From the NCBI GenBank assembly GCA_029287855.1, contig JARFQI010000063.1, positions 1-44,318 on the forward strand: 44,318 bases of DNA. Reading direction: 5' to 3'. This DNA comes from Arenicellales bacterium (GTDB lineage Bacteria; Pseudomonadota; Gammaproteobacteria; BMS3Bbin11). The translations under genes were made by a program, and so were the position numbers. Every line of letters begins with the position of its first letter. Position 1 is the stretch's first letter. A model generated the notes under the pieces. The model was not told where the DNA came from and ran no database searches. It worked only from the letters and a program-made list of their open reading frames with translations. Of the stretch, positions 19,817-40,546 are shown piece after piece.

Positions 19817-20140
19817 CTAGACAGTAAAGCTCTCTCCACAGCCACATGCATCTTTGACATTAGGGTTATTGAACTCGAAACCTTCATTCAGACCTTCACG
19901 CTTGTAATCAAGCTCCGTACCATCAAGGTAAATCAGGCTTTTTTTGTCTACGATCACTTTAACGCCGGATGATTCAAAAACCTCATCTGTATCTTCGATT
20001 TCATCGACAAACTCGAGTACATATGCCAGACCTGAGCAGCCAGAGGTTTTTACCGCCAGCCTGAGGCCCGCTGCTCCGCCCCGTTTTTCAATAAAATTAA
20101 GTACGTGTTCTGCTGCTTTTTCTGTCAGACTTATCGCCAT
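19817..20140 (-). CDS. iscA: A-type Fe-S carrier IscA
   Basis: 107-aa HesB/IscA fold with Cys in SGCSG and the C-terminal CGCGESF. Confidence 0.9.
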
Positions 20141-20200: not shown

Positions 20201-21415
20201 TCAGTGTGCAACCCATTCTACTTTTGACAGGTCTACACCTTCCTGAAACATGTCCCATAAAGGTGAAAGTTCACGCAATCTGTCTATGTTTTCACGCACC
20301 AGCTGGATAGCCTGGTCGATATCATTTTCCGTTGTAAAACGGCCAATGCTGAAACGAATGGAACTGTGTGCAAGTTCATCATTCCTGCCCAGCGCCCGCA
20401 ATACATAGGATGGCTCGAGACTGGCAGATGTGCATGCCGAGCCTGAAGAAACGGCGAGATCTTTTAGCGCCATGATCAGAGACTCGCCTTCGACATAATT
20501 AAAACTGATATTAATATTGCCAGGTATGCGGTGGTCCAGATCACCATTGACATAGACCTCATCCATATCTCTAAAGCCATCGAGCAGCCGGTTACGTAAA
20601 TGCAGAATCCTTGCGGACTCTTCTACCATTTCTTCACGTGCGATACGAAACGCTTCACCCATACCTACGATCTGGTGCACGGGCAGTGTGCCGGAGCGCA
20701 TGCCTCGTTCATGACCGCCGCCATGCATTTGTGCCTCGATCCTGATGCGGGGCTTGCGTCGCACGAACAGGACGCCGATACCTTTTGGTCCATAAATTTT
20801 GTGAGCCGACAATGACAGCATGTCAATATCCATGGCTTTGACATCAATCGGTATTTTACCTGCACTCTGTGCAGCATCGGTATGGAAGATAACTTTGTGC
20901 TTATGTGCAATTGCAGCGATTGAAGCAATATCCTGAATCACTCCAATTTCATTATTGACATGCATGATACTGATCAATGTAGTATCGGGTCTAATCGCAG
21001 CTTCCAGCTTGGCAAGGTCAATCAGGCCATCTTCTTCAGGATCAAGATAAGTTACTTCGTACCCTTCACGTTCGAGCTGGCGGCAGGTATCCAGAACCGC
21101 TTTATGCTCAGTTTTACAGGTAATAAGATGCTTTCCTTTCTTGCTATAGAAATGCGCAGCACCTTTAATAGCCAGGTTATTTGATTCGGTTGCTCCCGAG
21201 GTCCAGACTATCTCCCGTGGGTCGGCATTGATTAAAGCTGCAACTTGCTTGCGGGCCTCTTCAACAGCTGCTTCTGACTCCCAGCCATAAGCGTGCGAAC
21301 GTGAGGCCGGGTTGCCAAACTCACCATCCATAGTCAGATAATGCATCATCTTCTCTGCTACCCGTTTGTCTACCGGGGTCGTCGCTGAATAATCAAGGTA
21401 TATTGGTTTCATCAT
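20201..21415 (-). CDS. iscS: cysteine desulfurase IscS
   Basis: 404-aa ORF starting [13 protein letters not shown], with PLP-lysine context [10 protein letters not shown] and the active-site loop SSGSACTS. Confidence 0.96.
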
Positions 21416-22851: not shown

Positions 22852-24261
22852 TTAATTATTCTTCGGGGATTTATTTGCGCTCTTGTACCAGTTCAGCTTT
22901 TCTCTGAGCTGAACCACCTGCCCCACAATTATCAATGTAGGTGCCTTGATTTCATTCAACCTCACCAGCTCAGGCAGACTATCCAGATCACCAACATAGA
23001 CTTTCTGCTCTGGTGTTGTGCCCTTTTCGATTAGAGCGGCAGGTGTTGTCGGTGGCATATCGTGCGCGATCAGTTCTTTACAGATGATGTTGACTGCCTG
23101 CAACCCCATGTAAAAAACGATGGTCTGATTCGGCTGTGCCAGCGCCGGCCAGTTAAGGTTACAGGTGCCATCTTTCAGATGTCCGGTGACAAATGTGCAG
23201 GCCTGTGAATAATCCCGATGCGTCAGTGGTATCCCTGAATAGGTAGAGCAGCCTGAAGCTGCGGTGATGGCGGGCACGACCTGGAACGGGATTCCCTCCT
23301 CCATCAGTCCTTCAATTTCCTCTCCACCACGTCCAAAGATGAAAGGATCGCCACCTTTTAGTCGCAATACGCGATGTCCCTCTTTTGCCAGTCTGACCAG
23401 CAGGTGATTAATATCTTCCTGTGGAATCGTATGGTTATTTCTCTCTTTACCGGCATAGATACGCTGTGCATCGCGGCGAACCATATTTAGTATCGGTTCT
23501 GACACCAGCCGGTCGTAGACCACGACATCAGCCTGCTGCATTAATCGCAAGGCCCGAAATGTCAGTAGATCCGGGTCACCCGGTCCAGCACCCACGAGAT
23601 ATACCTGCCCCGATTCATGCGGTTTATCTTCAGCTTTGCTGATTTCTTCGGCAAGCGCCATCCTGGCCTCATCATCATGGCCGGCGTAAACCATTTCAGC
23701 GATACTTCCCTGCAGTACACGTTCCCAGAAGTAGCGCCGCGATTCTACATCGCTAAAGCGTTCTTTAACCGCATCTCGGTACTCTTCCACCAGGCTTGCC
23801 AGTCTGCCACAGGCGGATGGGATGGAGGATTCCAGGCGGCCTCGCAGCAGTCTTGCCAGTACCGGTGAGGCGCCGCCTGTTGAAATTGCAATCTGTACTG
23901 GAGAGCGGTCAATGATTGATGGCATCAGGAAACTGCATAAATCGGGATTATCAACTACATTCACAGGGATTCCTTTCTCATGCGCTATGGCTGATATGCG
24001 TTCATTGACTTCTCTATCGTCTGTAGAGGCAATGATAATAGCCTGATTACTAATATCAGCATCTTCGAAATTACGTTCGATATGAGTAATTGTATTTGCC
24101 GCCGCCATGGCTGACAGATCGTCACAAAGCCCGGGTGATATAACGGTAATGGATGAACCGGCTTTTTTCAGCAGAGCGACCTTTCTTGCAGCAACCTGAC
24201 CACCGCCTACAACCAGGCAATCGCGTTGTTTTATATTAAGAAATATGGGTAGTGAATCCAT
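22852..24261 (-). CDS. cysG: siroheme synthase (uroporphyrinogen-III methyltransferase / precorrin-2 dehydrogenase / ferrochelatase)
   Basis: 469-aa ORF. N-terminal Rossmann motif VVGGGQVAARK, and C-terminal SUMT motifs VYLVGAGPGDPDLLT and RLKGGDPFIFGRGGEE. Confidence 0.92.
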   Translation of the reverse strand: MDSLPIFLNIKQRDCLVVGGGQVAARKVALLKKAGSSITVISPGLCDDLSAMAAANTITHIERNFEDADISNQAIIIASTDDREVNERISAIAHEKGIPVNVVDNPDLCSFLMPSIIDRSPVQIAISTGGASPVLARLLRGRLESSIPSACGRLASLVEEYRDAVKERFSDVESRRYFWERVLQGSIAEMVYAGHDDEARMALAEEISKAEDKPHESGQVYLVGAGPGDPDLLTFRALRLMQQADVVVYDRLVSEPILNMVRRDAQRIYAGKERNNHTIPQEDINHLLVRLAKEGHRVLRLKGGDPFIFGRGGEEIEGLMEEGIPFQVVPAITAASGCSTYSGIPLTHRDYSQACTFVTGHLKDGTCNLNWPALAQPNQTIVFYMGLQAVNIICKELIAHDMPPTTPAALIEKGTTPEQKVYVGDLDSLPELVRLNEIKAPTLIIVGQVVQLREKLNWYKSANKSPKNN

Positions 24262-24400
24262 AATGGCTCCAGCATGGTCAGAAATCTAATCTACAAATAA
24301 CCGATCAATTTTATCAAATACTTGAGGGCAGCTCTATTAAATCTCAAGATGAATGATTAAATGATCACACAGTTGCGTACAGGCCTGGTACAACGATAAT

Positions 24401-24421
24401 GCTAAAGCAATGAGCTTTAGC
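24401..24421 (-). terminator. hairpin between the 178-aa gene and cysG (weak terminator candidate)
   Basis: GCTAAAGC-AATGA-GCTTTAGC forms a perfect 8-bp stem, but no T-run follows on either strand. Confidence 0.3.
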
Positions 24422-24439: not shown

Positions 24440-24976
24440 TTACTGTTGCTGACGGCAGCTTGTCACTTCTATTTCTTCAAAATGTTCCTTCAGCCAGCGG
24501 TGGACAAGGTGTGATGAATAGCGCTTGAGGTCTTTTTCATGTCCATCCTGGTTCATAATGCGTGCAGTCATTTCGAGTCTTACCTTGTTTGGTGTAAAGT
24601 GTTGCGCCAGTTTTTTAATAGCAGATGGTTTCCCCGGACGAACCTTGGGCATGGTGTATACGAGGTTTTGCATTGTGTCTATACGCAGGCTGGCAAAAAT
24701 CGGCCGCAGTCGTCTGCGGACTTCTTCCCGCACCAGCCGCGTGGCGAGCCAGGCCAGGTTATCAGCAGCATCGAGTAAATCCGGATCGACACCGAGTGCA
24801 GATTGCTGAAAGAAATCCAGTGCAGGGTAATAACCGAGATGATTTTCTTTTTCGTAGTCTGCAACCTGCCTCGCCAGTTCTTTTCCTACTACTTCAGCAG
24901 CTGCGGCAGAATGACTGTCCAGGTCTTCAAGTTTCACTGTGACCAGGATCGAAAGTGAAACATTAGTGACATTCAT
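24440..24976 (-). CDS. hypothetical protein, 178 aa
   Basis: ATG-initiated ORF 42 bp downstream of the DUF2237-like gene on the same strand. I recognise no motif. Confidence 0.5.
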   Translation of the reverse strand: MNVTNVSLSILVTVKLEDLDSHSAAAAEVVGKELARQVADYEKENHLGYYPALDFFQQSALGVDPDLLDAADNLAWLATRLVREEVRRRLRPIFASLRIDTMQNLVYTMPKVRPGKPSAIKKLAQHFTPNKVRLEMTARIMNQDGHEKDLKRYSSHLVHRWLKEHFEEIEVTSCRQQQ

Positions 24977-25018
24977 ATCTACAAAGCTTGTGCAGGGCAG
25001 ATGGTGAAATAATATTCG

Positions 25019-25414
25019 TTAATTAAGGTCAGCTGCATATTCCTTCAGCTGTTCCAGCGCTACAATTTCCAGCGCACGAATATGGGTTCGAGTCATATGC
25101 ACACGCGGTGCCATATCATGTTCATAGGCCTCCAGCCATCTGGCAGCACACAGGCACCAGCTGTCACCGGGTTTCAGTCCGGCAAATCCAAACTGGGGCA
25201 TTGGTGTTGACAGGTCGTTTCCACGAGATCGCGAGAATTCAAGAAAGTCGCTGTTTACCTTGATGCATACCGTGTGAGAGCCAAGGTCTTCCCTGCAGGT
25301 ATTACACTTGCCGTCCCTGAAAAATCCTGTAACGGGTTCTTCACTGCAGGACTGCAGAGGCTCGCCATAGACATTTAATGATTCATCTTTATCCATTTCC
25401 TGCATGCTTCCCAT
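25019..25414 (-). CDS. DUF2237-like small Cys-rich protein
   Basis: NVYGEPLQSCSEEPVTGFFRDGKCNTC...GSHTVC...GDSWCLCAARW matches the conserved pattern I associate with the DUF2237 family. Confidence 0.65.
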   Translation of the reverse strand: MGSMQEMDKDESLNVYGEPLQSCSEEPVTGFFRDGKCNTCREDLGSHTVCIKVNSDFLEFSRSRGNDLSTPMPQFGFAGLKPGDSWCLCAARWLEAYEHDMAPRVHMTRTHIRALEIVALEQLKEYAADLN

Positions 25415-25439
25415 TATTGCTTTCTCCCGAGTGAGTAAA

Positions 25440-26576
25440 TCATTGTTCTAGTGTCCCGATCATTTCAAGCAACGGTTCACTGACAGGCTTAATCCGCTTA
25501 CGCATTACACTACCGAGGCAATCAGTACCGCCAAATAGAGGGTCCAGCAATGTTTCGCTCATTTGTGCCAGTCCGAGCATGGCGAGTGTACGCTCTCGAC
25601 ATCCTGGTACTGCAGCAATGAGCTGTTTTATTTCGCTTGAAAGATGATGGTGCTCATTTTCACAGTTGTCATCATAGATTCTGCAATTGTAAGCACTGAG
25701 CTCTTCTATAGTGCGAAAACGCCGCGTCAGCCCCATCTCTGTAAAATGATGACCAATGGCGTTCAGCAAAGTCACCACCACTGCCTGCTGTGCTGGCCTC
25801 TTCAACGACAGGCCGATAGTGTGAAGAAATGCTCGTCCCCTGTCACTGTGGCACCAGAGATAGTATTCAGCGGCTTTATTACCCTGATCAATAATATTGG
25901 CAAGCTGCTGGCTCAACTGCGGATAGTTTTCATGTTCCGGGATATCAAGTGGCAGATCATTCGCTGCTGTAATCAGAAACCCGGGGTAATAGGCCGATTT
26001 GTGTGACGCCTTTTTCCACAAGCCTATACGGTCTTCTTCAGAAAGCACTCCTGCCTGCAGCAGCAGGCTGACTGTTTCAACGATGCGCAGGGCATCTGAT
26101 TCAAACGGCAGGAATTCCATCAGGAAGGTCGCCAGTTCCTGACCCAGGTCATCGTCAATAACACTTTTATGCCGCAGCAATATCCGTGCATTTTCTTCCG
26201 TCGGCTGCGCCCACCAGGCATGCCGGGCAACTTCTACCGGCAGATCTTCACTGTTGGCAACCGCAACGACAGCCTCTGGTTCACCCAGTTTTAGCAGGTT
26301 CTGCAGGCTTTCTTCCTTACGCGACTGGCCCATCCTGATCCAGCGGTGGATATATACCGGATAGCCAATAGGCGAACCCAGCACATATGTAGAGATCATT
26401 TCTTTGACCATGCCGATATATTTCTCATCACGACAATTGGGATTCAGAACAACCTGCCCTTCACCACGCTCTGTCAGGGCATCAATGCGCATTTTTGATT
26501 CATCAATACGCAGGGCATAAAGGTTTTGCCTGAGTAATACGTTAATTCGCAGATTGTCTTCGTTTGAAAGTGGCAT
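25440..26576 (-). CDS. hypothetical protein, 378 aa (possibly DsrS-like, unverified)
   Basis: Uninterrupted ORF 22 bp downstream of the VWA gene, with no TM segment or classical motif. The N-terminal LSNEDNLRINVLL...IDESKM...LTERGEG and the size recall DsrS of sulfur oxidisers. This rests on memory only. Confidence 0.55.
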   Translation of the reverse strand: MPLSNEDNLRINVLLRQNLYALRIDESKMRIDALTERGEGQVVLNPNCRDEKYIGMVKEMISTYVLGSPIGYPVYIHRWIRMGQSRKEESLQNLLKLGEPEAVVAVANSEDLPVEVARHAWWAQPTEENARILLRHKSVIDDDLGQELATFLMEFLPFESDALRIVETVSLLLQAGVLSEEDRIGLWKKASHKSAYYPGFLITAANDLPLDIPEHENYPQLSQQLANIIDQGNKAAEYYLWCHSDRGRAFLHTIGLSLKRPAQQAVVVTLLNAIGHHFTEMGLTRRFRTIEELSAYNCRIYDDNCENEHHHLSSEIKQLIAAVPGCRERTLAMLGLAQMSETLLDPLFGGTDCLGSVMRKRIKPVSEPLLEMIGTLEQ

Positions 26577-26598
26577 TAATTCGTATTATATAACTTGG

Positions 26599-27867
26599 TT
26601 AGTTTAGCTGTACCCGTGTACCAAACGGCACCTTCTTTTTTCCTTTTACCAGCCATAGCACATCAACAGCTGGTTCCTGCCTGGGGAACTCGCCTTCGGC
26701 GTCTGTAAAGTAGACCAGCAGATCAGGTTGTATATCCTGTTGCTTTAGCCACTGAAATGGCGGGACAAAAGAGGTGCCGCCACCGCCGCCAAGCTTTTCC
26801 GGCAAATGCACTTCTTCCCATGGCTCATATCGCCAGGGACAATTGCTATCAAGTTCTGCATCACAGGCGAGCAAAGTGATGCGGGCAGATAACTGTCCTT
26901 TTATGGCATTGATCTCGCTCAGAAACTCGCTCATCTCACCGTTACTGATGGATCCGCTGGTATCGACGACGACGACAATATTGACTTCTGTACTTCGCAA
27001 ACTGGGGTAGATTGCCGGGCCATCGCGCCGGCTTGATGGTCGCATGTAACTGTAATCATTACGTGCGATATAGCTAAGATAGCGAGCCAGCATCATACGC
27101 CATGGAAGGCTAGGCTGCAGCATATGATCAACCAGGCGGGCCAGTGATCCGGCCAGTTTTCCCGCCTGCATCGCCTGTTGTGCTGCGCCGGCCAGCCTCT
27201 GCTGCCATTGCACAGACAGGTCTTCCCGCTCCTGGCCACTAAGCGGACGAGGACGTTTCGCCCCTCCCGCATCACTGTCAGATTCAGCCTTACCACCGGT
27301 TTTGCCCTTTACTTCACTGCCGCCGCCTTTTTCAGTGACTTCACCATCAGCTGAGGACTGATCTCCGTTTGATGGTAATTCGCCTGACCCTTCACCCTGT
27401 GCACCATCATCTTCTTCTGCATCATAGATATGCTGATCGATAGTCTGGTCGGCCATCTTTTTATCAAGATAAGGATAGATTTCCTCAGCCGTCATTTCAG
27501 CAAAGCCTTTATCGTAGAGTATGCCAAATGGTGCTGTCAGGCCTTCATCAAGTAACAATGGATTGATAGCATAGTCACAGGCAATGTCCCAGCGCCACTT
27601 CAGGCGATTTTCTCTGCGTGCAAAGTGTGCGAGACCGCAATGCAGGGCTTCATGAGCAAGCATAAACTCTGTTTCCTGAAGCGACAGGGAATCAATAAAT
27701 TCGGGATTGTAATAGAACTTTCTGGCATCAGTTGCCGTGGTTTTACACCATTTACGGTCCGCGGCTACTAGCGGCAGTCGCAATACCAGTGCACCGAGAA
27801 AAGGTCTGTCGAGAATTAGTCGAGTGCGGGCAGTAGCGAGTTTCTGTTCAACTTGTTTAAGTATCAT
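26599..27867 (-). CDS. zincin-like (HExxH) / VWA-domain protein, DUF2201-type partner of MoxR ATPases
   Basis: HEALH is at aa 72-76 (nt 27640-27654). An acidic Gly/Ser-rich linker spans about aa 148-205. The C-terminal VWA fold carries the MIDAS motif VVVDTSGSI. Confidence 0.8.
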   Translation of the reverse strand: MILKQVEQKLATARTRLILDRPFLGALVLRLPLVAADRKWCKTTATDARKFYYNPEFIDSLSLQETEFMLAHEALHCGLAHFARRENRLKWRWDIACDYAINPLLLDEGLTAPFGILYDKGFAEMTAEEIYPYLDKKMADQTIDQHIYDAEEDDGAQGEGSGELPSNGDQSSADGEVTEKGGGSEVKGKTGGKAESDSDAGGAKRPRPLSGQEREDLSVQWQQRLAGAAQQAMQAGKLAGSLARLVDHMLQPSLPWRMMLARYLSYIARNDYSYMRPSSRRDGPAIYPSLRSTEVNIVVVVDTSGSISNGEMSEFLSEINAIKGQLSARITLLACDAELDSNCPWRYEPWEEVHLPEKLGGGGGTSFVPPFQWLKQQDIQPDLLVYFTDAEGEFPRQEPAVDVLWLVKGKKKVPFGTRVQLN

Positions 27868-27906
27868 GGGTGATCTAGAGGCGGTCTATCTCAGCAATTA
27901 TGGCTT

Positions 27907-28953
27907 CTAGCGACCGAACACCATCAGGTCTGCGATAGAATCTGCCCACTGGTCAAATTCCGGAACTGAAAACATTGCTTCACCCAGTGTTCGGTTCATA
28001 TCTGACACCATCATCACGCCCATCTCCCGCTGCGGGAAACTGCCAGCAAAACTCAATATATTGCCAATGACCCTGGCGGCATCCTCGCTGCCCTTCTCGC
28101 GAATGGCACGGCCAACCAGTGCCGTGGCGACAGCATATTGCAGATCTATCTCACCGGGTACAGGTACATCTTTTCCAGCAATAATTTCATCGAGATCCGG
28201 CATATTACTGAGATTCTCGATATACGCCTTGAGTTCGATACCGGTTGCCGGTCCCACGCAGGCCTGCAGAGTTTCAGTCAGCAACTCTGGTTGGTCTTCA
28301 AATTTCTGCAGGGCATTGTTGGCAAACTCCCATGAACGCGGAGTTGGAAAGGCAACCGGATTATGTGCCGGATCGAATTCAAACAGCTTTTCCGGTCGGA
28401 AGCGCAAAAATGCGATAAGCCTGTCATCAATACCCTTGCTATAGGCCCAGTTGACCCAGTCATCGAGGTTGATATCGACATCAAAATGCGAGAAGCGGTT
28501 AGCCAGCGGTGATGGCATGGTGTAGGTAACGCCACGATCACCCTGCCGGTTGCCGGCAGCAAAGATTGCCCAACCTTCGGGTACTTTGTATTCACCAAGA
28601 CTGCGGTCAAGAATCAACTGATAGGCAGCGGCTGAAACGCTGGGTGGTGCGGAGGTCACTTCATCGAGGAACAGGATGCCTGTTTCACCATGACGCTTCG
28701 CGTTCGGCAGCATAGACGGAATAGCCCATTCTACAAAATCTCCCACTCGCATAGGAATTCCGCGCAAATCACTTGGCTCCATTTGTGAAAGGCGCACGTC
28801 AATGACTTCAACACCATGTGAAACAGCTATCTGCTGAACAATCTGTGATTTTCCTACGCCTGGAGGGCCCCAGAGCATTACCGGTGTGTGCAGGCCTTCA
28901 CTGGCACTGAGGAACTCCCGTTCCAGGACTTTTATTAAATGTGCTGGGCGCAA
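27907..28953 (-). CDS. MoxR-like AAA+ ATPase (AAA_5 type)
   Basis: Walker A GPPGVGKS, Walker B ILFLDEV, sensor region AAGN and PLANRF. It has a single AAA+ module plus a helical C-terminal domain. Confidence 0.85.
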   Translation of the reverse strand: MRPAHLIKVLEREFLSASEGLHTPVMLWGPPGVGKSQIVQQIAVSHGVEVIDVRLSQMEPSDLRGIPMRVGDFVEWAIPSMLPNAKRHGETGILFLDEVTSAPPSVSAAAYQLILDRSLGEYKVPEGWAIFAAGNRQGDRGVTYTMPSPLANRFSHFDVDINLDDWVNWAYSKGIDDRLIAFLRFRPEKLFEFDPAHNPVAFPTPRSWEFANNALQKFEDQPELLTETLQACVGPATGIELKAYIENLSNMPDLDEIIAGKDVPVPGEIDLQYAVATALVGRAIREKGSEDAARVIGNILSFAGSFPQREMGVMMVSDMNRTLGEAMFSVPEFDQWADSIADLMVFGR

Positions 28954-29004
28954 TATATTATTCTCGTCATTATTATCGTGTCAGATCTGTTAGATCCAGA
29001 GTAA

Positions 29005-29430
29005 TTAAAATCCGGCTTTGGCATACCACTCTTTCGCCAGTTCAGGATCTTTCTCAACACCGTTACCTTCTTCATAAATCATCGCCAGGGTCGTCTGTGA
29101 GCCAGCCAGTCCCTGTTCTGCAGCCAGCGTGAACCATTTGATGGCCTCCTTCATATCCTTGTCGACACCATCACCTTCCATGAACATAAAACCAAATCCG
29201 TGTTGTGCGACGGCATGGCCCTGTTCTGCTGCCTTGCGCATCCATTTTACAGCAGCATCCGGGTCATGCCCGACACCCAAACCATTCTGGTACATGATGG
29301 CCACACGATGCATTGCTTCGGTATTGCCGCTTTCAGCAATGGGTGAGAGAAAACGCATAGCCGTGGCAAAGTGCTTGGATTCAAAGGCTGACATTCCACT
29401 GGCGAAATCGAGATCTTCGTTATCGCTCAT
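29005..29430 (-). CDS. Sel1-like repeat (SLR/TPR-family) protein
   Basis: Three to four repeats of the SLR signature (A..W..KAAEQGH..AQ..LG.MY..G.GV..D). Confidence 0.8.
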   Translation of the reverse strand: MSDNEDLDFASGMSAFESKHFATAMRFLSPIAESGNTEAMHRVAIMYQNGLGVGHDPDAAVKWMRKAAEQGHAVAQHGFGFMFMEGDGVDKDMKEAIKWFTLAAEQGLAGSQTTLAMIYEEGNGVEKDPELAKEWYAKAGF

Positions 29431-29810: not shown

Positions 29811-30005
29811 ATGAACAAAGAATATTATGACGCAGTAGTCAAAATGGAAGAAATGGGTGTAGACAGCGAATATATCCAGGGTTGGCAAGGCGGCTACCTG
29901 TGCAACGTCAAGCGTGAAGAACAGAGGCTGACCGAAGCCTATGAAGCTGGCTATGACGACGGTTTAGAAAAGAACCAGGACAACTTCGGCAACTGGATCA
30001 GCTAA
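29811..30005 (+). CDS. small acidic hypothetical protein, 64 aa
   Basis: ATG is preceded by AGGGGA, and two consecutive hairpins follow, the second a strong terminator. Confidence 0.5.
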   Translation: MNKEYYDAVVKMEEMGVDSEYIQGWQGGYLCNVKREEQRLTEAYEAGYDDGLEKNQDNFGNWIS

Positions 30006-30111: not shown

Positions 30112-31029
30112 ATGCGCTTTATATTGGCTTTAATACTCATACTGCCATCTCCATTTATCTGGGCGAAAGATTATTCACACCTGCATAAACGAGTTATTCA
30201 CCAGGACAGGCTTCTTTTACCAACTAATATTGAAAAAATTGGTGACCAGTATTTTATTGTTGATTGCTATAACAACAGGGTTATATATTCAGAAAAAATA
30301 GACACTCCTCTCGCCAAATGGGACAGGCTCGGCGCAGACATTCCTATGTCCTGGCCGCATTCAATCGCCTCCGATGGTCACTTTTACCTGGTAGACGATA
30401 CATACCAGAATAGACTGCTAATTTTTAAGCGAGAGGGAACAGCGTATACGTTCCATAAAGCGTTTAGCGATATCTCAAAGACTCCACACAGGGTGATATA
30501 TGACGATGCCACTAATGCCTTTTATCTACTTGGTGCGTGGTCACAGACAATAACAAAATTAGTGTCCAGGAATGATGATGTCGAGATTGAATACACAAAA
30601 AAAATGGATTTTCTTAAAGGGAAATACAGCCGGTCAATTCATATCATCGATGGCCTTATGTATTTCATCTCCGGCCCGGGAAAGATCAACGCCGTCAGAT
30701 ATAAAGATGATAGCTATGAAGTCGTAAGATCGTCTGTTGTCCCTGATGGATTTGAAAGTATGAACGATATTGTCAGGGTTGGTGATTATTTTTACCTGAC
30801 AGCTACAAGAAAAAAGATGCTTAAATGTAAATCACTGGATGACCACTCAAGTTGCGAAGATGTGTATGATAGTCTTGGCATAAAAGGAAACCCATATTAC
30901 TTCAGCTATTTTGATGATGCATTTTATCTAACTGAGATTAGTTCGGGTGATGGAATTATTAAATTTGATCACGATAATGACGGATTGAAAAATCCTGTTT
31001 ATTTTCATCGTCCTGAACCTCCCCACTGA
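30112..31029 (+). CDS. secreted repeat protein, probable six-bladed beta-propeller (NHL/SGL-like)
   Basis: Signal peptide MRFILALILILPSPFIWA. Six spaced repeats have the form (G)D.(F)Y(L/I)(V/T)D....N+(L/V): GDQYFIVDCYNNRVIY, DGHFYLVDDTYQNRLLIF, NAFYLLGA, DGLMYFISG, GDYFYLTA and DDAFYLTE. Confidence 0.6.
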   Translation: MRFILALILILPSPFIWAKDYSHLHKRVIHQDRLLLPTNIEKIGDQYFIVDCYNNRVIYSEKIDTPLAKWDRLGADIPMSWPHSIASDGHFYLVDDTYQNRLLIFKREGTAYTFHKAFSDISKTPHRVIYDDATNAFYLLGAWSQTITKLVSRNDDVEIEYTKKMDFLKGKYSRSIHIIDGLMYFISGPGKINAVRYKDDSYEVVRSSVVPDGFESMNDIVRVGDYFYLTATRKKMLKCKSLDDHSSCEDVYDSLGIKGNPYYFSYFDDAFYLTEISSGDGIIKFDHDNDGLKNPVYFHRPEPPH

Positions 31030-31234: not shown

Positions 31235-31807
31235 TTATTTCTCACTGTTCTGCTCATCTTCAGGCAGTAAATTGGCAATCCCTCTTTTCAGGGTCTTGAT
31301 CGCATCAGGTGCTTCAATATCAATGACCTGTGTAGTGACCCATTTCTTTTGTCTCTCTCCCATTACAGCGGTAACGTTTTCACCAAAATAGCGCAGCATG
31401 GGAAATGACGGACCGCTTTCATCGCTGTAACCGAAACGAGCATACTCATTCATGCGCATATTTAGTGTATTGATCAATTCAGGCTTATATTCGCCGTTGC
31501 CAAGAAAGTCTTCCATATTGTCCTGCATGGTTTGCGCCATTGCTTTCGCCATTGCAGAGATAAACACCGCACGCTCTTCCTCGTCCATGCGCTCATACAT
31601 CATGCGATCTGTGATATGGATCAGAAATGCAGCAAATTCCCAGATAATGGCCAGGCGTTGTACCTGGGTGTCTGTCTGGAAATCATTGTTTTCAAGCTCC
31701 AGTACGGCCTGGGTGCAGATACGCCAGGCGATAAAGGCAACGACGCCAGCTATTTCCTCAGGTGAACGGTCACGATTCTTGGCGCTCCACTTACTACGAA
31801 TTCTCAC
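31235..31807 (-). CDS. hypothetical protein, 190 aa
   Basis: ATG-initiated soluble ORF, divergent from the 349-aa gene across a 79-bp spacer. I recognise no motif. Confidence 0.55.
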   Translation of the reverse strand: MRIRSKWSAKNRDRSPEEIAGVVAFIAWRICTQAVLELENNDFQTDTQVQRLAIIWEFAAFLIHITDRMMYERMDEEERAVFISAMAKAMAQTMQDNMEDFLGNGEYKPELINTLNMRMNEYARFGYSDESGPSFPMLRYFGENVTAVMGERQKKWVTTQVIDIEAPDAIKTLKRGIANLLPEDEQNSEK

Positions 31808-31886
31808 AATAAACTCCCGTAATTTTTCAAGTAGCTTATTCTACAATAAGTCGTATGATTGATGAGAATAACGACACAGGTTGTGT

Positions 31887-32930
31887 ATGGACTTAGAATT
31901 AAGAAAACTGCAGCAGCATGTGCAGCACAATTGCCACATTTCTGATGCAACACATGCTGGAAATTATACGCTGTGCATTTATTTGCTGAAAATGCGTGAG
32001 TATTACCGCTGGGAGCATGCGATGGGTTTCGATGATCGCATTGAGAATGACAACATCGGTAAATGGCTGACTGATCGTGAATCACTGTGGGAAACCCTCG
32101 AGGAATCACAATTTAGAAAATTGTCGATAGGTGATAAGGAATTTGAACCTTTTGATATAGACGCGATTAACGATGCTTTGCAGCCAGAAAACCTTGTCTA
32201 CAGCGCAGGCTACATACTACGTGGCAAGCCGCATTTCTTTCTAGCTGATATAGACCAGGTGCATGAACACGATGAGTACAGGATTATTGTCAGCGGCAGG
32301 GAATACGCACGTGAACTATCAGCGCCACCGGCACTGAGCCAGGGCGGGACAATTTTTATTCGCAGTGAATCATTGCGCCGCACTGTCTGGGAAAAGGTTG
32401 AAGAAAGTCTCTGGAATACGCAGCAGTCACCGCTGGTTCGTGCTATTGCCTGTTATGATTTTAAAAACAACCTGCAGCAAAGCCTTGCACTGATGTGTGA
32501 CAGGGAGATAGACACCCTGGTGGCCCATGAGGTCGGTGAGATCACGGCGGGTAAACAACTGGGAGAGTCCTGGCAGGAGATGATAAGTGCTGCAGATCAT
32601 CCGCCACTTGAACTGATGCTGCGCTCAATCAGGGACAACCTGGCAGACTGTATCATGACTATACCGGATATCATTGAGAACCTGGAACCGGCCCGCCTGC
32701 ATTTCTATATCGCTAATATTGGAAATATGCGAAAGGCGCTCTTCCCTGCCCTGCGTGAAGCCTATGATTGCTGGCTGGAAGATAATTCAACGGCACATCT
32801 GCAGCAAGTGGCAGACAAAGGTAAGGATCACTGGTTGTCAGTGGCAAAAAATCTGCAGGATATGTTTCAGAAAGAAGGTAAAATAAAGAAACAGGCTTTT
32901 CAGGAATTCATTGAATCACAAGCTTATTGA
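31887..32930 (+). CDS. hypothetical protein, about 347 aa
   Basis: Long ORF. I prefer the ATG at 31887 over the TTG at 31881 in the ORF track. It has a Cys/His-containing N-terminus (HNCHISDATHAGNYTLC) and no motif I can name. Confidence 0.6.
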   Translation: MDLELRKLQQHVQHNCHISDATHAGNYTLCIYLLKMREYYRWEHAMGFDDRIENDNIGKWLTDRESLWETLEESQFRKLSIGDKEFEPFDIDAINDALQPENLVYSAGYILRGKPHFFLADIDQVHEHDEYRIIVSGREYARELSAPPALSQGGTIFIRSESLRRTVWEKVEESLWNTQQSPLVRAIACYDFKNNLQQSLALMCDREIDTLVAHEVGEITAGKQLGESWQEMISAADHPPLELMLRSIRDNLADCIMTIPDIIENLEPARLHFYIANIGNMRKALFPALREAYDCWLEDNSTAHLQQVADKGKDHWLSVAKNLQDMFQKEGKIKKQAFQEFIESQAY

Positions 32931-32996: not shown

Positions 32997-33602
32997 ATGA
33001 ACCATACCCCTACTTCTACAGAACTGAAAACAATCCGGGAAATCATTCCCAATAGCTTTATCTTCGAAAAGCTAAATGCACTGCCAGCCGAGTTATGCGA
33101 TGAAATGATTCGTCGATTTGAGGCCAGCGAAGATGAGCAGTATCCAGGGCGGATAGGTCAGACCGTATCCAGTGACCAGAGCGTTAAAAAAACCACTGAC
33201 CTGGTAGTCAGCGGCAAACCAGAGTGGAAAGACATTGATCGCGCCCTGTTTCAGTCACTCGGCCGCGCGATTCTTGAATTCAGGGAGAAGTACATCTACT
33301 TCAAGGGCCCTTTCAAGGATATGGGTTATAATCTGCAGCGCTATAATCCCGGCGAGTATTATCACTGGCATATTGATGGCGGCAGCCATGATTTCAGCCA
33401 GCGGCAGCTGGTGGCCCTCTGGTATCTAAATGATGTCGACGGCCCCGGTGGTGAAACAGAGTTTCTATTTCAGGATGCCAAAATCAAACCCGAGCGTGGT
33501 AAGCTGGTACTGTTCCCGCCCTTCTGGACGCATGAGCACCGGGCCGTCGAACTGGAAAAAGGCGTTAAATATATTGCTACAACCTGGGTTGTTTTTGCCT
33601 AG
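32997..33602 (+). CDS. 2OG-Fe(II) oxygenase superfamily protein (prolyl-4-hydroxylase-like)
   Basis: The HxD...H facial triad (YHWHIDGG ... FWTHEHRAV) is embedded in a jelly-roll-like C-terminal half (LWYLNDVDGPGGETEF...GKLVLFP). Confidence 0.75.
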   Translation: MNHTPTSTELKTIREIIPNSFIFEKLNALPAELCDEMIRRFEASEDEQYPGRIGQTVSSDQSVKKTTDLVVSGKPEWKDIDRALFQSLGRAILEFREKYIYFKGPFKDMGYNLQRYNPGEYYHWHIDGGSHDFSQRQLVALWYLNDVDGPGGETEFLFQDAKIKPERGKLVLFPPFWTHEHRAVELEKGVKYIATTWVVFA

Positions 33603-34106: not shown

Positions 34107-34366
34107 TTCTGTATCAGATACTCCGACCTAGTTGATCCAATAATAAACCAAGAAAAATGCCTTCTCAGGTGGTTATCAGAATGCCGATGATATGGTCTCC
34201 TACACATATGCAAGAAATCTGTAGCGGGGGAAGTCCAGACTCAATTTAGATGCTTCGCCAAATCAAGGCAAGACCAAATAGTGGTAGTTGTAGTAAACCT
34301 GATAAAAACAGATCTTACTGAACTATAAGAAGAAAATCGTGACTCGGCAAAACCAGAAAGTTGGCC

Positions 34367-34564
34367 TTAAAAATTTGCTTCAGTGCGAATTTCAGAATAA
34401 ATTTTTTCCAAAATCTTCTGGTCGTACATAGTATCTCTACCCAGGGTAGTCACCATTGCATCGTAAGTCGCCTTATTTTGTCTATCCATAAACACTGATT
34501 TAACACCGTCAATGTCTTCTTCCAGCCATTTCACTGTCAAAAATGCATAAATTGATGTTTTCAT
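34367..34564 (-). CDS. possible small hypothetical protein (65 aa)
   Basis: ORF with ATG at 34564 (TTG at 34570 in the ORF track) and a weak ribosome-binding site. It lies in an AT-rich context. Confidence 0.3.
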   Translation of the reverse strand: MKTSIYAFLTVKWLEEDIDGVKSVFMDRQNKATYDAMVTTLGRDTMYDQKILEKIYSEIRTEANF

Positions 34565-34806
34565 TTTCAATATTCCAAAGAACGAAGTAAAAAGTTGAGA
34601 AGAATATTCAATACCAGCCTTATTTTTTAGACTTTACTAAATAAATATTACAATAATATGTCAGGGTAAAAAAACCTTATAAAAGTGCTAGATACAGAAG
34701 AAACAGTATATTCATCAGTTTCATTTATATCTATTGTGGAAAGTACTTAATCGGGTAAGCCTGTCGGGATGCCTATTTGAGGTTGCGTCGAGCATCGGTT
34801 TTTATT

Positions 34807-34825
34807 GTGGAGACGCTATCTCCAC
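34807..34825. repeat. inverted repeat / hairpin
   Basis: GTGGAGA-CGCTA-TCTCCAC forms a perfect 7-bp stem. Confidence 0.6.
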
Positions 34826-34835
34826 AGCCGAAACC

Positions 34836-34867
34836 AGTAAATGATCATTCTGTTGCAATCATTTACT
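34836..34867. repeat. inverted repeat / hairpin
   Basis: AGTAAATGAT-(12 nt)-ATCATTTACT forms a perfect 10-bp stem. Confidence 0.65.
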
Positions 34868-34907
34868 AACTGGTTATCGATACCAAGATTTTGCCTGGGT
34901 TTACTTT

Positions 34908-34926
34908 CCCCTCCCCCCCCTTTTTT
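34908..34926. repeat. homopolymer tract C4-T-C8-T6
   Basis: Read directly as CCCCTCCCCCCCCTTTTTT, about 130 bp upstream of the DUF2062 gene start. Confidence 0.9.
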
Positions 34927-35053
34927 AAGTGATAGCAGGTGTTATTTACAAAATACCCTGTTTCCTGAAAGTCCTTTTTATACAGCATCGAGTTGTTTGT
35001 TAAATTATTCATAAATCAGGTGAAATCTGATAATCGGGTGATATACTGTTTTG

Positions 35054-39447: not shown

Positions 39448-40546
39448 TCAAAGTCCGGACTTCAAGCTCGCCTCTATGAACTGGTTCAGGTCACCATCCA
39501 GCACGGCCTGGGTATTTCCGGTCTCTACTCCGGTACGCAAATCTTTGATGCGTGATGCATCGAGTACATATGAACGTATCTGGCTGCCCCAGCCGATATC
39601 TGATTTGGCATCTTCCACCTGCTGCTGGTCGTCCTGCTGCTTCTGTATTTCCAGTTCATACAGACGTGCTTTCAACATGTCCATCGCCTGTGCCTTGTTG
39701 CGATGCTGGGAGCGGTCATTCTGGCATTGCACAACAACCCCTGTCGGCATATGTGTCAATCGCACAGCAGAGTCCGTCTTATTGACATGCTGACCGCCTG
39801 CACCGCTTGAGCGATAGGTGTCTATACGCAGGTCGGCCGGGTTGATCTCAATCTCGATACTCTCATCTATTTCCGGTGAAACAAAGACTGAAGCAAATGA
39901 TGTATGGCGGCGGTTGCCTGAATCAAACGGAGATTTTCTCACCAGGCGGTGAACGCCGGTTTCTGTACGCAACATGCCAAAGGCATACTCGCCGGTAAAC
40001 TTGATGGTGGCACTTTTAATTCCAGCCACGTCACCTTCAGAGACTTCCATCAGTTCCGTCTTAAAGCCCTGGCGTTCACCCCAGCGTAAAAACATCCGCA
40101 GCAGCATATTTGCCCAGTCCTGCGCCTCGGTACCGCCGGATCCGGCCTGGATATCCATCCAGGCATTATTGGCATCCATTTTTCCCGAAAACATGCGGCG
40201 AAACTCGAGTTCCTCCAGTTTTTTCAGCAAGCGGTCGAGATCGTTCTGAACATCGGCTAGCATCGACTCATCATTTTCTTCCTCGATCATAGAGAGAAGT
40301 TCTAACGACTCATCAATGCCATTTTCCAGCATCAGGATAACGTCGACGACCGCTTCCAGCCTGGCCCGTTCCTGGCCCAGGGATTGTGCCCTGTCCGGGT
40401 CGTTCCAGACATCCGGGCTTTCCAGTTCGCGCAGTATCTCAGTTAGCTGCTCTGATTTTGTATCGAAGTCAAAGATACCCCCTCAAAGACAGTACGCGTT
40501 CTTTCATGTCTTTGAGTTGATTCTTTAACGGATTCAGGTCTTCCAT
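39448..40546 (-). CDS. prfB: peptide chain release factor 2, expressed through a programmed +1 frameshift
   Basis: Frame 0 reads ATG at 40546 ... [25 protein letters not shown] then TGA (40469-40471). The +1 frame continues [25 protein letters not shown]... into the 294-aa ORF listed in the track, which contains SPF and [13 protein letters not shown]. The total is 365 aa, as for E. coli RF2. Confidence 0.93.
40468..40483 (-). other. RF2 autoregulatory +1 frameshift site
   Basis: The minus strand reads AGGGGG TAT CTT TGA C. This is an internal SD-like element, then a 3-nt spacer, then the CUU UGA C slippery/stop context, identical to the E. coli site. Confidence 0.9.

Follow-up and report, generated by a model that had tools for sequence, protein, structure and literature searches.

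The window analysed here, a stretch of 44,318 nucleotides (positions 1 to 44,318 of contig JARFQI010000063.1, Arenicellales bacterium, assembly GCA_029287855.1), carries between positions 24,440 and 29,430 a minus-strand gene cluster built around a MoxR-type AAA+ ATPase, a partner protein with a von Willebrand factor A (VWA) domain, and a member of the DsrS family. We propose, with a probability of roughly one half, that these three proteins form a chromosomal, housekeeping MoxR-VWA-DsrS module, usually headed by a gene for a Sel1-repeat protein and often followed by a gene for a 178-aa protein (orf178), and that the module is accessory to sulfur oxidation by the reverse dissimilatory sulfite reductase, rDsrAB. 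The conserved core is four genes, encoding the Sel1 adaptor, the MoxR ATPase, the VWA protein and DsrS, and not the six of the operon-like cluster described in an earlier note on this sequence. The probable task of the ATPase pair is to remodel DsrS, or something that DsrS holds. We arrived at a ternary chaperone because the active sites of the ATPase and of the VWA domain are invariant among orthologues and because the third conserved gene is dsrS.

Layout of the cluster

In the direction of transcription, the module opens with the Sel1-repeat gene (29005..29430), encoding 141 aa with three repeats (Pfam Sel1, E=9e-33). The MoxR-type ATPase gene (27907..28953) has a TTG start and encodes 348 aa (Pfam AAA_5, E=3.1e-10); the VWA partner gene (26599..27867) encodes 422 aa, matched by the Pfam models DUF2201_N (E=4.2e-49) and DUF2201 VWA (E=2.4e-22). 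These are followed by the DsrS-family gene (25440..26576; 378 aa, homologues named DsrS, without a Pfam family), a DUF2237 gene (25019..25414; 131 aa, Pfam DUF2237, E=4.1e-53) and orf178 (24440..24976; 178 aa, without a Pfam family, with an alpha+beta fold in its AlphaFold2 model). The six minus-strand open reading frames (ORFs) and the spacers of 51, 39, 22, 25 and 42 bp that had been reported between them were confirmed; the motifs GPPGVGKS, ILFLDEV, HEALH and DTSGS, the last at the metal ion-dependent adhesion site (MIDAS), were all found in the translations, and a Pfam profile scan agreed with the domain calls (Sel1, MoxR/AAA_5, DUF2201_N, DUF2201 VWA and DUF2237). All six ORFs are real genes, each with homologues elsewhere, and the cluster is far beyond chance. 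The operon-like appearance of the cluster, co-directional and tightly spaced, therefore stands as a description of the window, but the six genes are not conserved as a set of six across related loci.

The DsrS-family protein

The 378-aa protein, in which no motif had been recognised, is assigned to the DsrS family (about 370 aa) under the names given by NCBI and UniRef, and this identity points to the Dsr sulfur-oxidation pathway. A search of a 5.8-billion-protein collection returned 1519 homologues, and an exhaustive HMMER scan yielded 372 clusters at 50% identity, mostly full-length, single-domain proteins of about 370 aa. Two relatives that NCBI names 'sulfur reduction protein DsrS' (P0340 and P0358) are 44-46% identical to the window protein at 99-100% coverage, and two that carry the UniRef name 'DsrS' (P0064 and P0092) are 45% identical. 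The same name from the NCBI annotation pipeline (PGAP) is borne by a gene beside dsrR in the dsr operon of Thiocapsa bogorovii, tabulated as the counterpart of Alvin_1265, the dsrS gene of Allochromatium vinosum (PMC10892978). This shared name links the window protein to Alvin_1265 and makes the case for family membership, as drawn from sequence, strong but indirect. Pfam and NCBIfam scans found no family model for the 378-aa protein, and scanning 114 diverse members of the family against NCBIfam likewise revealed no DsrS model.

In A. vinosum, dsrS is the last gene of the dsrABEFHCMKLJOPNRS operon, which encodes the reverse dissimilatory sulfite reductase system, and has its own promoter; it is preceded by dsrN, which probably catalyses siroheme amidation, and by dsrR, and the function of its product has been described as 'still not resolved' (PMC3368242). 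The window protein resembles A. vinosum DsrS in length, in being a single-domain cytoplasmic protein and in the family name shared by its 44-46% identical relatives; unlike the A. vinosum gene, the window gene lies outside a dsr operon, 3' of a MoxR/VWA pair and near cysG and isc genes. Deletion of dsrS in A. vinosum reportedly slows the oxidation of stored sulfur, and Grimm et al. in 2010 are said to have proposed post-transcriptional control of Dsr protein levels.

Genomic context elsewhere in the family also leads to sulfur oxidation. Named hosts of DsrS homologues include sulfur-oxidising Gammaproteobacteria, among them Thiohalobacter and Ca. Thioglobus; close homologues also occur in such named lineages as Thioalkalispiraceae, Thiohalomonadales and Kaarinaea. 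A 4.68-Mb genome (L096) encodes a DsrS homologue that lies 7 kb from dsrB-dsrA-dsrEF and is followed by CbiX, glutaredoxin, TusA and soxYZAB, so that one member of the family is found beside dsrAB, dsrEF and sox genes. The dsr operon of Thiohalobacter sp. FOKN1 runs from dsrA to dsrR without dsrS (PMC6934394); its DsrS homologue is encoded at another place in the genome, outside the operon, in the order Sel1-DsrS-orf178 and without MoxR/VWA. One distant homologue is located after a thioredoxin gene.

The AlphaFold2 model of the window protein (pLDDT 90.4, pTM 0.85) consists of a small N-terminal three-stranded beta-sheet followed by an all-alpha solenoid. A Foldseek search of the model against the Protein Data Bank (PDB) returned nothing with E<0.5 (best E=0.51), the matches being generic ARM, HEAT and TPR repeat proteins, and a PDB sequence search with the DsrS profile found no solved relative. 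In the family alignment no Cys or His is conserved; the invariant residues are Y53, W121, W122 and G355. An alpha-solenoid without cofactor ligands suggests a scaffold or adaptor.

One position separates family members by genomic company. Residue 17 of DsrS is Gln in 63/64 loci linked to MoxR/VWA, and also in L093, L099 and L012, whereas in the 10 examined loci without MoxR/VWA it is N, A, G, S or T and never Gln; a single exception in the opposite direction was found in the P0176 clade. The pattern fits a contact surface, and Q17 is a candidate contact or specificity determinant for MoxR/VWA, with phylogeny as a possible partial confounder.

The MoxR ATPase and its VWA partner

The ATPase scored 40.6 bits against AAA_5 (Pfam cutoff 22). 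In all 46 orthologues aligned (46/46), residues G29, P31, G32, G34, K35, S36, L94-E98, N135, R136, R140 and R153 are invariant, covering the Walker A motif (G-x-P-G-x-G-K-S), the Walker B motif (LFLDE), and the sensor and arginine positions. In a PDB sequence search the closest solved relatives were the AAA domains of midasin (1.8e-13), followed by NorQ (2.7e-4, 23 bits). Two more specialised profiles fell below threshold: Mg_chelatase (E=0.023; 14.5 bits against a cutoff of 20.3 bits) and bpMoxR (19.9 bits against a cutoff of 27).

The VWA gene begins 39 bp downstream of the MoxR gene, and wherever the upstream sequence of a surveyed locus was long enough to show both genes, they were found as a pair. 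Its product consists of an N-terminal zincin-like DUF2201_N domain with an HEALH motif at residues 72-76, an acidic Gly-rich linker at about residues 140-205 and, at the C-terminus, a VWA domain. The MIDAS residues (D302-T-S304-G-S306, T365 and D389) were examined in 56 orthologues, and D302, S304, S306, T365 and D389 are each invariant in 56/56. The linker varies in length from 46 to 118 residues among orthologues. The placing of the MoxR/VWA pair at the centre of the cluster was borne out, and its ATPase and MIDAS sites are intact.

The HExxH motif, by contrast, is variable. The first histidine, H72, is kept in 45/56 VWA orthologues (R, K or Q in 11/56) and the catalytic-type glutamate, E73, in 49/56 (Q or D in 7/56); the motif is degenerate in 12/56, as REALH, KQALH, QQALH or HDALH, although the operons concerned are otherwise intact. 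Neither H76 nor H81 varies, and H81 is a possible zinc ligand. A PDB sequence search with the VWA protein gave no significant relative (best, the minigluzincin-like MJ1213, E=0.59), and a literature search on DUF2201 turned up nothing on function and no documented peptidase activity for DUF2201_N. A peptidase system had been suggested as one possibility; HEALH is intact in the window protein, yet with HExxH lost in 12/56 orthologues the function that is conserved cannot be that of a peptidase.

Conservation of gene order

We collected 99 loci from contigs encoding homologues, one genome scan and one metagenome scan; the genome-contig scan used a single-sequence query and returned two close metagenome-assembled genomes. 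The survey of gene order used 92 of the loci, or 86 after de-duplication. Window proteins were mapped by tblastn and, for each gene, only loci with enough flanking sequence were counted as informative. DsrS identity in the survey was mostly 41-90%, so the proportions given here describe mainly the clade with at least 41% DsrS identity; deeper clades are represented by a handful of look-ups.

The VWA gene is the immediate 5' neighbour of dsrS in 51/58 informative loci (and directly upstream of the DsrS gene in L012), and the MoxR gene is present in 41/47. The association extends across DsrS clades. In L093, from a third DsrS clade, the trio is encoded with 69% (MoxR), 55% (VWA) and 41% (DsrS) identity to the window proteins, with orf64, Sel1 and cysG flanking it as in the window. 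Two loci from other DsrS clades, L094 (MoxR 68%, VWA 55%, DsrS 38%) and L099 (69%, 57% and 35%), hold the same trio between unrelated flanks, and within the main clade L010 likewise has the trio among unrelated flanking genes. MoxR and VWA are thus much better conserved than DsrS in L093, L094 and L099, and the identity of MoxR stays at 67-94% across loci whose flanking genes change. Because MoxR and VWA remain with DsrS while the surroundings change, functional coupling is favoured over inherited gene order.

Downstream of the cluster two arrangements recur. The first, cysG-cysE-iscRSA-hscBA-fdx, occurs in the window, L001, L005 and L093; the second, which follows dsrS or orf178 in many relatives, such as L003 (11176-13892), L007 (11693-14512) and L010 (11716-14704), consists of genes for a glutaredoxin, an EgtB-like protein (DinB_2 and FGE-sulfatase domains) and an EgtD-like protein (Methyltransf_33). 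The EgtB/EgtD-like flank, which stands in place of cysG-cysE-isc, corresponds to a thiol-histidine pathway of the ergothioneine or ovothiol type. The cysG gene lies within 3 kb downstream of dsrS in 11/33 informative loci and directly after dsrS in L093. The siroheme, cysteine and Fe-S neighbourhood to which the earlier note had drawn attention is therefore real in the window, where cysG, cysE, iscR, iscS, iscA, hscB, hscA and fdx all lie downstream on the same strand, but it is found in a third of the informative loci, and several of the others have the glutaredoxin and EgtB/EgtD-like genes.

In the upstream direction, the limits first drawn around the cluster were too narrow, since four further genes also travel with DsrS. 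The 64-aa gene orf64 (29811..30005, plus strand), divergent from the module, has homologues 56-95% identical in 23/30 informative loci; a 190-aa gene without a Pfam family (31235..31807, minus strand) has homologues 38-94% identical in 15/26. Beyond these, a 349-aa DUF6866 gene (31881..32930, plus strand; Pfam DUF6866_N, 8.9e-65, and DUF6866_C, 1.9e-60) recurs in 11/21 informative loci and is paired with a gene for a 201-aa 2-oxoglutarate (2OG)-Fe(II) oxygenase (32997..33602, plus strand; Pfam 2OG-FeII_Oxy_3, 3e-15), homologues of which (57-92% identical) occur in 10/19. Members of this upstream set are also found where MoxR/VWA are missing: orf64 and the 190-aa gene in L095 and L096, DUF6866 in L009, L095 and L096, and the oxygenase in L096, where the set keeps company with DsrS even beside dsrAB and sox genes. 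The MoxR-VWA pair thus looks like an add-on to an older, DsrS-centred accessory set; judged from gene order, it appears to have been inserted, usually together with Sel1, directly 5' of dsrS within that set. The four upstream genes, too, may have an accessory part in sulfur oxidation of the Dsr type.

Sel1, orf178 and DUF2237 proteins

The Sel1 protein, with three repeats, scored 112 bits against the Pfam cutoff of 30.7, and its translation, inspected by eye, has no obvious N-terminal signal peptide. Homologues 60-87% identical are encoded upstream of DsrS in 29/36 informative loci. In seven metagenome loci no MoxR/VWA genes intervene, and Sel1 itself is the immediate 5' neighbour of dsrS.

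The other two genes of the original six are less constant. For orf178 we found 56 homologues, all unnamed. Its AlphaFold2 model (pLDDT 91.2) shows an alpha+beta fold with a four-stranded sheet, for which a Foldseek search against the PDB gave no meaningful match (best MoaC, E=4e-3, TM 0.2-0.3). As a member of the cluster, orf178 has a partial claim: it is located directly 3' of dsrS in 25/46 informative loci and is absent from about half. The DUF2237 protein is well defined as a domain (178.6 bits, Pfam), with solved homologues 4ioh (3.9e-43), 3ush and 2lq3, to none of which a function has been assigned. Its gene was present in 1/46 informative loci, that of the nearest relative, L001, and is already absent from L002, where DsrS identity is 78%; it is therefore a recent insertion and a lineage-specific passenger, and its inclusion in the system has to be withdrawn.

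The window also contains an 18-nt inverted repeat (17/18 complementary) at 24346-24363 and 25372-25389, bracketing orf178 and most of the DUF2237 gene. The repeat may be due to chance or may be a trace of a DUF2237 insertion event.

Comparison with known systems

The characterised MoxR/VWA pairs NorQ/NorD and CoxD/CoxE are linked to cofactor insertion into, or assembly of, metalloenzymes. The window module shares with CbbQ/CbbO, NorQ/NorD, CoxD/CoxE(F) and RavA/ViaA a MoxR-clade AAA+ ATPase encoded beside a MIDAS-bearing VWA protein, a third protein as client or adaptor, and a housekeeping metallo-enzyme setting. Unlike CbbO, NorD and ViaA, its VWA partner, which has a zincin-like domain at the N-terminus, belongs to the DUF2201 type; unlike members of the CbbQ/NorQ/GvpN (CGN) subfamily, its ATPase is nearer to the AAA domains of midasin than to NorQ; and unlike the known MoxR/VWA clients, to none of which it is related, the third protein is DsrS. 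On these sequence comparisons, the module would work like CbbQ/CbbO, NorQ/NorD or CoxD/CoxE while standing outside those subfamilies.

Relatives of the pair were also encountered apart from DsrS, as modules of an AAA ATPase and a VWA-like (DUF2201) protein on plasmids of Burkholderia, Cupriavidus, Simplicispira and others. These are paralogues with the same gene order, 31-33% (ATPase) and 33-35% (VWA) identical to the window proteins over their full length; unlike the window module, they have another gene in the middle of the pair, are without DsrS, Sel1 and orf178 and reside on conjugative plasmids. The VWA-like homologue was observed on conjugative plasmids of Burkholderia, Cupriavidus, Rhodococcus and others (130 records). 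In both plasmid records examined, L097 (Burkholderia cenocepacia pBcn842-1) and L098 (Simplicispira suum), an AAA ATPase gene lies upstream of the VWA-like gene; on pBcn842-1 one hypothetical gene separates the two, and type IV secretion genes follow directly after.

Proposed mechanism and alternatives

According to a general model for MoxR-VWA systems, the MIDAS of the VWA protein captures a partner peptide and ATP hydrolysis by MoxR remodels that partner, aiding complex assembly (PMC7159879). Applied to the window, MoxR would form an ATP-hydrolysing AAA+ ring on which the VWA protein would dock, its MIDAS site gripping an acidic residue on DsrS or on a client held by the DsrS alpha-solenoid. 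ATP hydrolysis would act through the flexible acidic linker and would remodel, assemble or release the gripped complex. The outcome would be a post-translational setting of the amount or activity of Dsr-pathway proteins, with the siroheme enzyme DsrAB and its partners as the likeliest ultimate target. What the sequences show directly is the family assignments, the gene order kept across clades, the invariance of the ATPase and MIDAS residues and the tie of the DsrS family to dsr and sox loci. Beyond this we infer that the proteins bind one another, that DsrS serves as adaptor or client and that the Dsr system is the target. A chaperone of this kind agrees with the slowed sulfur oxidation and the post-transcriptional control attributed above to the work of Grimm and colleagues. 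As for the suggestions of the earlier note, a housekeeping maturation or remodelling role connected with sulfur metabolism fits the evidence better than a conflict role.

Several observations weigh against the MoxR-VWA-DsrS module as an accessory to rDsrAB. The 44-kb window contains no dsr gene, and the case for membership in the DsrS family is built from names shared in databases, the size of the family and its context. The loci of the survey were chosen through DsrS. Homologues of DsrS without MoxR/VWA occur in L009, L011, L095, L096 and the seven metagenome loci; with so many, the ATPase pair is an add-on to DsrS and not a requirement. Finally, the neighbouring genes (cysG, isc, glutaredoxin and EgtB/EgtD-like) also fit a general role in thiol, siroheme or Fe-S metabolism.

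That last point is the basis of an alternative that we consider unlikely but worth keeping in view, namely that the task of the module is sulfur, thiol, siroheme or Fe-S homeostasis in general and not Dsr, with a DsrS-like role wider than the name of the family. Its client would be an assimilatory siroheme-containing sulfite or nitrite reductase, an Fe-S protein, or an enzyme of a low-molecular-weight-thiol pathway. Both downstream arrangements described above speak for it, as do the distant homologue after a thioredoxin gene and the lack of dsr genes in the window. The same flanks vary, however, while the trio stays together (L094 and L099), so no single neighbour is an obligate partner; moreover, hosts of the family include Thiohalobacter and Ca. 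Thioglobus, one family member resides among dsrAB, dsrEF and sox genes, and DsrS was defined genetically within the dsr operon. Rather less probable is ATP-dependent regulated proteolysis, in which MoxR would unfold or present DsrS or a Dsr-pathway protein for cleavage by the HExxH domain and thereby set Dsr levels. The intact HEALH of the window protein, the invariance of H76 and H81 and the annotation of DUF2201_N as a putative metallopeptidase domain speak for it; suggestive, too, is that one protein joins a peptidase-like domain with a VWA domain that grips substrate, and control of Dsr levels after transcription is what is said to have been proposed for DsrS. Against this must be set the loss of the first His or the catalytic Glu in 12/56 orthologues, when the MIDAS and ATPase residues never vary, together with the want of a significant match to a solved peptidase and of documented DUF2201_N peptidase activity in the literature searched.

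The architecture of the module also recalls the class I chelatases BchI/BchD/BchH and CobS/CobT/CobN, in which an AAA+ ring is combined with a VWA-MIDAS subunit that has an acidic linker, and with a third subunit; both CoxD/CoxE and Mg-chelatase are cited in the study that summarises the general model (PMC7159879). By this analogy MoxR and VWA would drive the loading of a metal or of siroheme or siroamide, and DsrS would hold the cofactor or the apo-enzyme. A tetrapyrrole context is provided by cysG, which directly follows dsrS or orf178 in a third of loci, by CbiX near dsrS in L096, and in A. vinosum by dsrN, which with dsrR precedes dsrS; the role of the known MoxR/VWA pairs in metalloenzymes points the same way. 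We nevertheless regard chelatase-like insertion as improbable. No significant Mg_chelatase or CobS/CobT profile match was obtained, that of Mg_chelatase to the ATPase remaining sub-threshold; DsrS, without conserved Cys, His or other metal or porphyrin ligands, is far smaller than BchH or CobN and shows no fold match to them; and loss of dsrS in A. vinosum reportedly does no more than slow sulfur oxidation. Least probable by a wide measure is a conflict or anti-phage system. Ternary vWA-MoxR systems have been proposed as conflict systems, with VMAP, iSTAND, FtsH or beta-propeller third components (Kaur et al. 2020, PMC7159879), and like them the window combines MoxR and vWA with a distinctive third protein presumably restructured by the pair; the weak bpMoxR match and the paralogous pairs on conjugative plasmids could be read in the same sense. 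The third component here, however, is the DsrS alpha-solenoid, with none of the listed components and no effector domain, and its phyletic pattern and setting are those of a housekeeping gene. None of the six proteins had a significant match in NCBIfam and PADLOC scans (no PADLOC match better than E=1.8e-4), no plasmid with DsrS was found, and MoxR is maintained in a core-genome setting, with no repeats or integrase nearby, while flanking genes change. A setting in the core genome, without effector domains or PADLOC matches, thus disfavours a conflict role, and the stand-alone NTPase/peptidase or conflict system once offered for the cluster found no support.

Genomic setting and other features of the window

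The operon structure of the cluster is read from spacing and strand alone. A promoter and terminator scan of the window gave counts near those of shuffled sequence, and inspection of Shine-Dalgarno sequences was uninformative on operon structure. A hairpin with an 8-bp stem (24401..24421, minus strand), located by consensus scan and by reading the sequence, is a candidate weak terminator; it lies 19 nt past the orf178 stop codon, within the 178-bp spacer ahead of cysG, and has a weak T-tail. The cysG gene itself (22852..24261, minus strand) encodes a siroheme synthase with the Pfam domains TP_methylase, NAD_binding_7, CysG_dimeriser and Sirohm_synth_M. The other genes of the window are core housekeeping genes (guaA, guaB, xseA, der, bamB, hisS, rodZ, rlmN, lolCD-like, lysS and prfB), and the GC content of the cluster, 0.48-0.52, is near that of most of the window. 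No tRNA genes or Rfam matches were found in the window, and a repeat search of it revealed no mobile-element boundaries.

Several features lie apart from the module. In the isc operon, iscS (20201-21415) is followed directly by iscA (19817-20140), with no iscU between them; the absence, unusual for an iscRSUA-hscBA-fdx operon, is repeated at 14916-16463 of L005, a relative with 55% DsrS identity. On the minus strand at about 40466-40480, upstream of the prfB ORF (39448-40332), the sequence GGGTATCTTTGAC holds a classical CTT TGA C site; because this is the programmed +1 frameshift site of release factor 2, the listed 294-aa ORF represents the post-frameshift part of prfB only. A 305-aa ORF (30112-31029, plus strand) has a hydrophobic N-terminus that by eye resembles a signal peptide, and a weak NHL-repeat match (E=0.007). 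It interrupts the conserved block upstream of the module, lies in the lowest-GC kilobase of the neighbourhood (0.39) and has no counterpart in the surveyed related loci; it is probably a recent insertion. A further region of low GC content (0.37), about 950 bp at 34107-35050 between the genes for a DUF3792-like membrane protein and a DUF2062 protein, contains no ORF of at least 110 aa and no Rfam match.

Implications

DsrS is a protein of the dsr operon without an assigned biochemical function, and its gene is usually joined to genes for a MoxR ATPase and a MIDAS-VWA protein with invariant active sites. This association offers a testable hypothesis: that an AAA+ remodelling machine has DsrS as its partner or acts upon it. 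A literature search returned no paper combining MoxR with DsrAB and sulfur oxidation and no reported MoxR/VWA link to DsrS. The sequences suggest a new housekeeping subfamily of MoxR/VWA systems, with a VWA partner whose zincin-like domain would often be catalytically dead. The survey also flags a wider DsrS-linked accessory set (DUF6866, the 2OG-Fe(II) oxygenase, and the 64-, 190- and 178-aa proteins), all of it entirely uncharacterised.

Among the routes by which sulfur is oxidised in marine sediments, oxygen-minimum zones and symbioses, reverse Dsr is a major one. We put forward, tentatively and on the analogy of other MoxR/VWA systems, the more specific idea that DsrS may be the dedicated adaptor or client of a MoxR-VWA 'activase' for this pathway, and that the pair, recruited through DsrS with help from Sel1 and orf178, might be responsible for assembly, reactivation or loading of the siroamide/Fe-S enzyme DsrAB or of the DsrC/DsrEFH relay. 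Were it true, the module would be a parallel to CbbQ/CbbO for Rubisco and would provide the first biochemical function for DsrS, and a sulfur-oxidation pathway of global importance would prove to include a maturation or repair step not recognised before.

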